From Planctomycetota bacterium (lineage in GTDB: Bacteria > Planctomycetota > UBA1135 > UBA2386), in contig OZ245838.1 in the NCBI GenBank assembly GCA_965228735.1, forward strand, positions 2,752,001-2,816,000: 64,000 bases of DNA. Reading direction: 5' to 3'. Each line of letters starts with the position of its first letter. The stretch's first letter is position 1. The position numbers and the translations under genes are program-made. The notes below the pieces were generated by a model. The model ran no database searches. It saw only the letters and a program-made list of their open reading frames with translations, and was not told the origin of the DNA. Positions 31,417 through 34,188 of this stretch are shown here, piece by piece.

Positions 31417-32535
31417 TCACAGCCACTGCTGCACTGCTGCGAGCACCGTGCGCGGTTCGATCAGCGCCTGGCAGTGCGGGACCTTGTCACAACGTGGCAG
31501 GTAGCAGCAGATGCAGTCCAGGTCGGGCACGAGCTTGCTGCCGCGGCCGTAGAGTTCGATCTCGGGTGCCGAGGTCGGGCCGAAGAGGACGACGGCCGGG
31601 GTCTTGCGCGCGGCCGCGACGTGCACCGCGAGCGAGTCGCTCGTGACGACGACGCGGCAGGCGTCGATGAGGGCGGCGAAGCGACCGAACGTGTTCTCGT
31701 TGCCGCCGTCGAACACCGGTCGGCCCTCGGCGCCGGCGATCAGGTCGCGATGGCGCGCGCTCTCCTCCGGGCCACCGAGCAGCAGAACGGCGAGCCCAGC
31801 GTCGGTCGCGAGTTCGAGGAACGTGCGCTGGTGCTCGAGCGTCCAGCGCTTGTATTCCCACCGCCCGCCCGCACCCGTGTTGAGTCCGACGAGCGGTCGG
31901 TCGCTGCCGAGACCGGCCACGAACTCCTTCGCGCTCGCGGTCTCGCGTTCCTTCGGCTCGAGCACCGGCTCCGTCACCTGCGCCGGGTCGAAGCCGAGCA
32001 CGCGCGCGACGAGCGCCTGGTAGGTCTCCTGGTTCGCTCGTTTCTGCACGTCGTCGACGCCCATGCCGAGCCACAGAGCTGCGCCATCGGACAGCGGCAC
32101 GACGCGGCCATTGGCGTCGCGCACGTAGCCGCGCCGTTCCTTCGCGCGGGCCATCGCCGCGAGTGCGGCCGCGTCGGGATCCGCGTCGGGACAGAGCACG
32201 ACGTCGAAGTCCTCGGTCGACAACCGCGCGGCCGTCACCGCGTCGCCGGTCGTCAGCACCTCGTCGACGAACGGGTTGCCGTCGAACAACGCCGCGGCGG
32301 CCGGCCGCGTGACCCAGGTGACGTGCGCGCCCGGCCAGGTCGTGTGCACCGCGGGCAGGAACGCCGTCGTCCGCAGCACGTCGCCCGTCGCCGCGAGCTT
32401 GACCATGAGCACCCGATGCCGGACCCGGTCGTACTCGTCGCAGCTCCCGCACACCTTCCCGCGCTGCTTGTGCGGCGCGCACGGCCGGTCCCAGCGCACG
32501 TGGCGGCAGTCGGTTCGGAGGTCTTCGGGCTTCAC
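31417..32535 (-). CDS. GT9 family (ADP-heptose:LPS heptosyltransferase-like) glycosyltransferase
   Basis: VKLAATGDVLRT, GLNTGAGGRWEYKRW, VVTSDSLAVHVAAA, LFGPT. GTG start inferred. Confidence 0.9.
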   Translation of the reverse strand: MKPEDLRTDCRHVRWDRPCAPHKQRGKVCGSCDEYDRVRHRVLMVKLAATGDVLRTTAFLPAVHTTWPGAHVTWVTRPAAAALFDGNPFVDEVLTTGDAVTAARLSTEDFDVVLCPDADPDAAALAAMARAKERRGYVRDANGRVVPLSDGAALWLGMGVDDVQKRANQETYQALVARVLGFDPAQVTEPVLEPKERETASAKEFVAGLGSDRPLVGLNTGAGGRWEYKRWTLEHQRTFLELATDAGLAVLLLGGPEESARHRDLIAGAEGRPVFDGGNENTFGRFAALIDACRVVVTSDSLAVHVAAARKTPAVVLFGPTSAPEIELYGRGSKLVPDLDCICCYLPRCDKVPHCQALIEPRTVLAAVQQWL

Positions 32536-32628
32536 TGAGGACGTATCGGCAGCACGCGGCGCGAACAAAACCTAGCAGACCGGCGGCCCGGGATTGGACA
32601 CAACCCGGTCAACACCGAGACTTCATTC

Positions 32629-33066
32629 ATGCTCGAACCAGGTCAACCCGCTCCCGACTTCACCGTCCCCGACGAGAACGGCAAGCAGCACTCGCTCGCC
32701 GACTACCAAGGCAAGACGCTCGTCCTGTGGTTCTACCCCAAGGCCGACACGCCGGGTTGAACCGCGCAGGGCAAGGGGCTCCGTGATCGATTCCCCCAGT
32801 TCCTCGCCAAGAACGCCACGGTCCTCGGCGCGTCCACGGACGACGCCGCCGCCAATCAGGCGTTTCGCAGCAAGTTCGACTTCCCGTTCCCGCTGCTCTG
32901 CGACACGGACCACACGCTCGCCAAGGCCTACGGCGCGATCGCGGACGGCGCCGAGAACGCGAGCCGCGCGGCCGTCGTGATCGACCCGGACGGCAACGTC
33001 CATCGCTACTGGCCGAAGGTCGACGCGCAGAAGTTCGCCGAGATGGTGTTCCACGAACTCCCGTGA
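32629..33066 (+). CDS. bcp: Peroxiredoxin (BCP/PrxQ type) with in-frame TGA at the peroxidatic position; probable selenoprotein
   Basis: MLEPGQPAPDF...LVLWFYPKADTPG[TGA 32758-32760]TAQGKGLRD...VLGASTD...FPLLCD...RAAVVIDPDG; one continuous frame through the TGA to the stop at 33064-33066 (145 aa). Confidence 0.88.
32775..32796 (+). promoter_or_regulatory. Candidate bacterial SECIS hairpin
   Basis: GGGG-c-TC[cGUgauc]GA-uu-CCCC; apical loop begins ~21 nt after the UGA, with GU near the loop start. The stem is weak and was folded by eye. Confidence 0.4.
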
Positions 33067-33096
33067 CCGCTGGCGGCCCGGCATGATGGGGTCGCC

Positions 33097-33663
33097 ATGA
33101 CTGCTCTCACCATGCTGTGGCTGCCGATCCTGCTGTCGGCGGTGTTCGTCTTCGTCGTCAGCTCGATCATCCACATGGTCCTGCCGATCCATCGCAAGGA
33201 CTTCGGCAAGGTGCCGAACGAGGACGACGTCCGCACCGCCATCCGCGCGGCCAACGTCCCGCCCGGGCAGTACATGCTGCCGTGCGCCGGCTCGATGAAG
33301 GAGGCGCAGGAGACCGACTTCATGAGCAAGCTCAAGGAAGGCCCGGTCGCGACGATGATCGTGCGGCCGAACGGCATGTGGAGCATGGGCCCGGCCCTCC
33401 TCAAGTGGTTCGTGTTCAGCCTGCTCGTCAGCGTGTTCTGCGGCTACCTCACGGGCATCCACGTCGCCCCGGGCGGCGAGGCGATCACCGTGTTCCAGAT
33501 GACGGGCGCGATCGCGGTGCTCGGCTACGTGTTCACCCACGTGCACGAGTGGACGTGGAAGGGCCTCGGCACGAACATCATGGTGAAGTTCGCGATCGAT
33601 GGGGTGATCTACGCGCTCGTCACGGCCGGCACGTTTGCGTGGTTGTGGCCGTCCGCGGTCTGA
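33097..33663 (+). CDS. Conserved-looking integral membrane protein
   Basis: Several hydrophobic helices; strong GC3 codon bias. Confidence 0.75.
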   Translation: MTALTMLWLPILLSAVFVFVVSSIIHMVLPIHRKDFGKVPNEDDVRTAIRAANVPPGQYMLPCAGSMKEAQETDFMSKLKEGPVATMIVRPNGMWSMGPALLKWFVFSLLVSVFCGYLTGIHVAPGGEAITVFQMTGAIAVLGYVFTHVHEWTWKGLGTNIMVKFAIDGVIYALVTAGTFAWLWPSAV

Positions 33664-33669
33664 GACCGA

Positions 33670-34188
33670 CTACCGCTCGCGTGACGCGAGCTTCCAGACC
33701 GCGTTGCTGAAGAGCATCGACAGGCCGACGACGATGAATACCGCCGCTACGAGCAGATAGAGGTAGGGCGTCACATCGCCGTCCATCATCCCGAACATCG
33801 ACAGGATGCCGGGCAACAACAACACGCCGTAGACGGCGACCAGCAGACCGCAGACCTTGAGCGCGACCCACAGCCAGTCGTAGCGGTCGAGCCCGGGCGC
33901 CGTCGTCGCGGGAACTGCCGGAGCAGTCGACTCCGGTCGATCCGCGTCCCGACCGACTCGATCCACCCCCATCGCGCGCAGCATCGGCTCGATGTTGGCG
34001 AACAGCAGGAACAGGCCCGCGATCAGCGGAATGCCGCTGTCGAGAAACGCCGCGAGCGATTCGTTGTTGTCCTTCTCCGTCCAGCGATGCAGCGTCATCA
34101 CGGCGTCTGGCACGGCGACGACCCCCTCGACGAGCAGCCACAATCCGCTCGCCTTGACGAGCAACCACGCGATGTCGTCCCGCTCCAT
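33670..34188 (-). CDS. Small membrane protein with an internal duplication
   Basis: RDDIAWLLVKASGLWLLVEGV resembles RYDWLWVALKVCGLLVAVYGV; about 4 TM segments. Confidence 0.6.
   Translation of the reverse strand: MERDDIAWLLVKASGLWLLVEGVVAVPDAVMTLHRWTEKDNNESLAAFLDSGIPLIAGLFLLFANIEPMLRAMGVDRVGRDADRPESTAPAVPATTAPGLDRYDWLWVALKVCGLLVAVYGVLLLPGILSMFGMMDGDVTPYLYLLVAAVFIVVGLSMLFSNAVWKLASRER

Follow-up and report, generated by a model that had tools for sequence, protein, structure and literature searches.

A peroxiredoxin gene with a predicted selenocysteine codon at the peroxidatic position, from a planctomycete genome with many candidate selenoproteins

In a 64,000-nucleotide stretch of contig OZ245838.1 from a Planctomycetota bacterium (positions 2,752,001 to 2,816,000 of the forward strand; hereafter the window), a gene for a BCP/PrxQ-type peroxiredoxin contains an in-frame TGA at the peroxidatic position, codon 44. 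Judged from sequence comparison, this codon is very likely decoded as selenocysteine (Sec). The reading is based on a frame that is open on both sides of the TGA, an intact PxxxT..U motif with its Arg, a set of sel genes, alternation of TGA and TGC at this codon among homologs, and a hairpin found in TGA genes only. An earlier note, made from the letters of the window, had proposed Sec recoding rather than decay, and it is supported by the machinery, the alternation and the independent contigs described below. The gene also amounts to a correction of the annotation, since gene callers split or overlook what is predicted to be an antioxidant selenoenzyme.

The gene and its reading frame

As shown in Table 1, the coding sequence has a single in-frame TGA and ends at a second one. 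From the ATG at 32629, 43 codons lead to the TGA at 32758-32760 and 101 further codons follow; codon 44 is the sole internal stop of the 145-codon frame. The gene is missing from the program-made ORF list, as the earlier note had said, and the start, the position of the TGA and the number of codons after it were all confirmed. The peptide flanking codon 44 reads FYPKADTPG-U-TAQGK. The peroxiredoxin motifs VLGAS.D, FPLLCD and R..VVID.DG, which had been described as intact downstream of the TGA, are all found in the frame.

With a dicodon model, for which 2534 long ORFs of the same genome served as training set, the coding score per codon was 0.68 before the TGA and 0.64 after it, which bears out the normal codon bias claimed for the downstream part; the five other frames at the locus scored from -0.25 to -0.84. 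After the TGA no start codon occurs in frame until codon 117, which excludes a separate gene for the 3' part. A homology search with this 3' part gave just 12 loci, the closest named one being a Planctomycetota MAG (69%).

No sigma-70-like promoter was found in positions 32400-33800 of the window, and an Rfam scan of 32000-33700 returned chance matches only. A membrane-like ORF of 188 aa (33097-33663, +), for which Pfam and NCBIfam gave no match, lies 30 nt 3' of the peroxiredoxin gene. The same ORF adjoins the peroxiredoxin ortholog in three other loci (L035, L036 and L037), so the two genes are possibly co-transcribed.

Table 1. Features of the peroxiredoxin locus, in positions of the window
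Feature	Position	Strand	Evidence or remark
BCP/PrxQ-type peroxiredoxin CDS, 145 aa, one in-frame TGA	32629..33066	+	Ends at TGA 33064-33066
Active-site motif P37-x-x-x-T41-x-x-U44	32737..32760	+	P37, G43 and C/U44 invariant, T41 nearly so, in 27 homologs
TGA codon 44, predicted selenocysteine at peroxidatic position	32758..32760	+	TGA/TGC homolog rows; contigs of 4 studies
Lys49, site of the helix-2 resolving Cys in many BCP/PrxQ	32773..32775	+	Sequence
Predicted bacterial SECIS, 7-bp stem, 7-nt loop (32782-32788)	32775..32795	+	Covariation, RNAalifold, codon test
Cys91, sole Cys of the protein, end of predicted strand 89-91	32899..32901	+	Homolog rows; AF2 model
Arg113, conserved catalytic Arg of peroxiredoxins	32965..32967	+	Invariant in 27 homologs; requirement from PMC4749874

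Assignment to the peroxiredoxins

Peroxiredoxins are defined by the active-site pattern Pxxx(T/S)xxC/U plus a distant conserved Arg (PMC4749874), and the predicted protein has both, in P37, T41, U44 and R113. Pfam AhpC-TSA (PF00578) matches residues 4-125 (E 6e-37, 126.7 bits), and 128 PDB sequences were matched, the top ones mostly named BCP and the best being 5enu (E 4e-24). In the AlphaFold2 (AF2) model (pLDDT 96.7), strand 30-35 is followed by helix 42-60, whose first turn contains residue 44. Pfam, the PDB matches and the AF2 model agree on a thioredoxin-like fold in which helix 2 carries the catalytic residue in its first turn.

By sequence, the protein is nearer to BCP/PrxQ than to the other five Prx classes, and we class it as a BCP/PrxQ-type peroxiredoxin on that ground. 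The best NCBIfam matches were PrxQ (E 7e-32) and PRK09437 (E 3e-28), well above the AhpC, Tpx and Prx6 models, with scores below the equivalog cut-offs of these PrxQ/BCP models (110.5 vs 260 for NF053650; 98.9 vs 140 for PRK09437). Like the BCP/PrxQ enzymes of PDB 5enu, 3drn and 5iph, it has the FYPK..TPG.T motif and a length of about 145-160 aa, but those enzymes carry Cys where Sec is predicted here.

Sec peroxiredoxins are known, as had been stated from the outset. A Sargasso Sea survey catalogued 43 of them, with TxxU and in COG1225, in 2005 (PMC1088965), and Prx is listed as an experimentally verified selenoprotein in a 2026 catalogue of 119 families (PMC13188914). The Sec-Prx of COG1225/PF00578 (PMC1088965; PMC13188914, Table 1) share with the present protein the fold family, PxxxTxxU and widespread Cys homologs, and likewise have an in-frame UGA with a SECIS in the coding region. 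In what these sources give we found no defining difference, except that the window's copy is without a resolving Cys. PrxU of Eubacterium acidaminophilum, which PMC13188914 cites as a Sec peroxiredoxin shown by experiment, also has Sec at the peroxidatic position; its model (NF040737) is longer, with 233 positions, and the weak match (50.5 bits vs a cut-off of 270) places it in another subfamily. The window's gene is thus an addition to a known Sec-Prx family, and its genomic context is the more notable part. Neither the 2026 review (PMC13188914) nor the BSepDB paper mentions Planctomycetota in its main text; selenoproteins were reported earlier in some planctomycetes (PMC4807772).

Decoding of UGA in the genome

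The genome analysed is one contig of 7.19 Mb, and loci of this genome outside the window are given below in positions of that contig. If the TGA is a Sec codon, the machinery for Sec should be encoded, and a search for selA, selB, selD and tRNA-Sec found all four. selA was matched with E 1e-109 and is directly followed by selD, which itself has an in-frame TGA; selB scored 336.6 bits against a cut-off of 242. The tRNA-Sec gene (76.6 bits; 2825088-2825186, -) lies about 9 kb past the right end of the window, far from selA-selD and from selB. Its predicted fold has an 8-bp acceptor stem and a 5-bp T stem (8/5) with a long variable arm, and it is the only tRNA with a TCA anticodon among the 67 called by ARAGORN. 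Relatives of the same order mostly have selA (59/60) and tRNA-Sec (56/60) too.

TGA is the main stop codon of the genome and terminates 1670 of the 2534 long ORFs, which argues for site-specific recoding and not for a changed code. That UGA is read here as another residue, either Cys by a special tRNA or Trp or Gly by a changed code, is very improbable. Systems that read UGA as Cys exist, and Cys at this position would likewise yield an active enzyme. However, the use of TGA as a regular stop, the single TCA tRNA with the anatomy of tRNA-Sec, and the presence of SelA and of a SelD that is itself encoded with a TGA all stand against such a reading.

TGA and TGC among homologs

The earlier note had proposed a search for orthologs that alternate between TGA and a Cys codon at this position, and such alternation was found. 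Among 57 homolog rows, taken as the best loci of the homology searches and including TGA genes down to about 40% identity, codon 44 is TGA in 36 and TGC in 21. The tree of these homologs requires 11 switches between TGA and TGC, of which 10 are forced by well-supported branches. A further 14 loci, chosen for carrying a TGA, all proved to have it at codon 44 as well.

A survey of 201 genomes of the phylum gave matches in 85, and in 31 of these a TGA version was found. selA was found in 29/31 genomes with a TGA version vs 32/54 with Cys versions only (Fisher p 9e-4, uncorrected for kinship); because the genomes are related, neither the homolog counts nor the genome counts are independent. Two TGA genomes lacked a selA match. 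In one of them (G168) selB and tRNA-Sec were found. In the other (G149, 90% complete) selB and selD fell below cut-off and the tRNA-Sec match was marginal, which counts against the Sec reading. A TGA gene without sel genes in G149 may reflect an incomplete bin, a misbinned contig or a relic. This genome has a BCP gene with a catalytic TGA and a SECIS-type loop at C47:26916-27338 (L132).

A check of reads had also been suggested for the window's own TGA. Contigs assembled from four runs of four studies showed no difference over the TGA codon; three of the four carried a flag for near-identity and may come from the same source DNA, and a run marked as possible source was excluded. The runs listed as holding this DNA included no RNA run. 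A nonsense mutation (that is, a pseudogene) or a sequencing error would take one change, TGC to TGA, and the hairpin of the window's copy is thermodynamically unremarkable, as such an origin would allow. Against it stand the identical TGA in the contigs of the four studies, the TGA at the same codon in 36/57 rows and 14/14 further loci, the coding score undiminished past the TGA, and the synonymous conservation specific to the SECIS described below. Conservation effectively refutes an origin by mutation or error, to which we give a practically negligible probability; Sec recoding is the reading kept in what follows.

A hairpin downstream of the TGA

The predicted SECIS lies 21 nt 3' of the UGA and has G-U at loop positions 2-3 and one stem mismatch in the window's copy. 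It had been described as a weak SECIS-like hairpin. Taken alone it is indeed weak: in single-sequence folding it was no better than shuffles (z = 0.24, 1.85, -0.63 and -1.22 for four folded segments).

A different picture came from the homologs. In 21 TGA orthologs the stem is paired in 92.5% of cells, a value reached by 0/500 shuffles, vs 41.6% in the same columns of 11 Cys homologs, for which 192/500 shuffles were as high; this shuffle test is uncorrected for kinship. Three pairs of the stem show changes on both sides among the TGA orthologs, slid registers reach at most 55%, and RNAalifold predicts the same helix unprompted. The loop includes the codon of Arg52, which is CGT in 34/36 TGA rows and in 0/21 TGC rows; genome-wide, CGT makes up 6.4% of Arg codons. 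Among 14 more distant TGA peroxiredoxin genes only five have CGT there, and this loop signature is limited to the closer homologs. With at least 10 switches between Sec and Cys on the tree and a loop codon that follows the switch, the family offers a clean natural experiment.

The bSECIS model asks for a loop of 3-9 nt with G in its first two positions, a stem of 4-16 bp, a distance of 16-37 nt from the UGA and an energy at or below -7.5 kcal/mol (PMC13188914). The geometry of the hairpin fits (7-nt loop, 7-bp stem, G at loop position 2, 21 nt spacing). The energy is borderline, at -3.7 kcal/mol for the upper 7-bp stem alone, -12.6 for the stretch +9..+48 and -7.94 for the ortholog consensus. 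It is the comparison across homologs, and not the single sequence, that strongly supports the predicted hairpin as a SECIS. On the established bacterial pathway (PMC13188914), SelB carrying Sec-tRNA would bind the G-U loop of this hairpin and deliver Sec at the UGA.

Putative catalysis and recycling

In the enzyme so made, the selenolate of Sec44 would attack H2O2 or organic peroxides and be converted to a selenenic acid. How the latter is resolved depends on the thiols at hand. No resolving Cys was found at +5, where the protein has Lys49 (the absence of this Cys from UTAQGK had been pointed out before), or in helix 73-83 of the AF2 model, and Cys91 is the sole Cys. Since neither +5 nor helix 3 offers a Cys, recycling by an outside thiol is favoured, and the selenenic acid would, with fair probability, be resolved in this way, in the manner of 1-Cys peroxiredoxins. 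Glutathione/glutaredoxin or a partner of the thioredoxin family would be the likeliest donor. A gshB match over its cut-off and a candidate Sec-glutaredoxin are present in the genome. 1-Cys peroxiredoxins depend on Trx, GSH or Grx for their regeneration (PMC5811025), and about one third of PrxQ have no resolving Cys, which is not needed for membership in PrxQ (PMC4749874).

Alternatively, Sec44 could be recycled through an internal Se-S bond to Cys91, an unusual resolving position. Cys91 is present in 31/36 TGA rows vs 12/21 TGC rows, and 16 of the 18 TGA rows without the +5 Cys have it. On the other hand, the position is otherwise occupied by S, A, T or V, a core strand of the AF2 model ends with this residue, and the five resolving positions given in PMC4749874 do not include it. 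We consider such a bond unlikely, a weaker rival to 1-Sec recycling by an outside thiol, and the role of Cys91 is probably structural.

The +5 Cys is kept in 18/36 TGA rows vs 19/21 TGC rows (p 0.003, uncorrected), which suggests that this Cys is less necessary where Sec is present. Loss of the resolving Cys is found mainly among Sec versions, so that close pairs could serve to test why Sec is used in a peroxiredoxin.

Other candidate selenoproteins of the genome

The earlier note had also raised the possibility of further missed selenoproteins, and many candidates were found. The genome has 23 AhpC-TSA matches, 10 of them with a TGA, in each case at the position of the catalytic Cys. A first, loose read-through scan gave 243 TGA, 230 TAG and 42 TAA candidates. 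Because TAG candidates were about as numerous as those with TGA, a coding score with a hairpin is no proof by itself, and candidates were kept only if they had a known Sec motif or a TGA aligned in paralogs or orthologs. Twenty-six read-through candidates were checked against Pfam and NCBIfam, and tiers were assigned by hand. Known Sec motifs define the first tier (32 sites, 31 ORFs) and the second has 10 sites with the TGA aligned across paralogs or orthologs; 7 sites in 6 ORFs make up a third tier and are candidates only. A hairpin with a G-U loop follows 7 of 11 sites found by HMM only vs 307 of 2000 Cys codons.

By these sequence criteria, the supported selenoprotein ORFs of the genome seem to number about 41, and with the third tier the total may reach 47. 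Among them are Prx, TlpA, Trx, Grx, MsrA, AhpD, SelW, HMA, rhodanese, deiodinase-like proteins and SelD. The ten most selenoprotein-rich genomes in BSepDB have 46-63 selenoproteins and are said to be mainly from anaerobes (PMC13326102). Two strong matches to heme-copper oxidases were found in the present genome. Several TGA codons were rejected as ordinary stops: that at +4577434 is the end of MlaE, and those at +135423, +222294, +4654131 and -6417379, with others of 70 candidates, were judged so by eye.

Four kinds of protein are candidate new Sec families. The first is a gene resembling MetE, the cobalamin-independent methionine synthase (PF01717; 1761486-1762649, +; L145), with TGA at 1762143, where 20 loci have TGA in 9 and Cys in 11. 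A perfectly paired 6-bp hairpin is found in its TGA genes only, and the start of the loop resembles that of the peroxiredoxin hairpin; the peptide encoded at the hairpin differs between TGA and Cys versions. Its neighbours, by eye, are DsrE-, TusA- and OsmC-like.

The second kind comprises three FG-GAP-repeat proteins with a UC motif (TGA at +3065085, -5872224 and -406817; locus L149). In relatives the TGA is present in 22/22 matches, so that no Cys version occurs among these 22, and at the same site in 20/20 loci checked, and a strongly conserved hairpin lies downstream. The third is an ASPIC/UnbV FG-GAP protein (TGA at +5458926; L146), for which 4 of 5 homologs have TGA and the fifth has Glu. 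The fourth is a UxC protein without known family (TGA at +5150736; L148), with TGA in 10/10 rows, two of which are aligned one codon off.

All four are absent from the catalogue of 119 families as given in PMC13188914, and no Sec-specific NCBIfam model matched them. Nor were they found in the literature searched, in deep-Sep (PMC12013277) or in the BSepDB text; the supplements, the BSepDB site or GenBank may list them.

Taken together, these observations may describe an overlooked, selenoprotein-rich and O2-respiring lineage of planctomycetes with 41-47 selenoproteins, near the top ten. It would have at least four uncatalogued Sec families (the MetE-like protein in a DsrE/TusA sulfur-relay cluster, the FG-GAP UC proteins, ASPIC/UnbV and UxC), and within the peroxiredoxin family repeated gain of Sec would free the resolving Cys. 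We put this joint claim slightly above an even chance. According to a review, aerobic bacteria rarely retain selenoproteins (PMC13188914); the wider result, if true, bears on this rarity in aerobes and adds several enzyme families to the selenoproteome.

Some further observations concern single loci. Four paralogs have an HPLGCTU-type motif (TGA at +3484699, +6929513, -4855623 and -7087946), and the one that was scanned had no Pfam or NCBIfam match; three thioredoxin-like proteins are related to them (TGA at +2546238, +5497385 and +3235945). Candidate double-Sec sites are found in two HMA-like ORFs (1929-2525, -, L152; 583199-583819, +, L162) and in a G-U-x-G-S-G-U stretch (TGA pair at -4484867; L166), and there is a candidate C-terminal UxxC at -3763190 (L170). 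At 204483-205726 two AhpC paralogs, 57% identical, stand in tandem, one with Cys and one with TGA, and are followed by a TlpA-like gene that contains a TGA.
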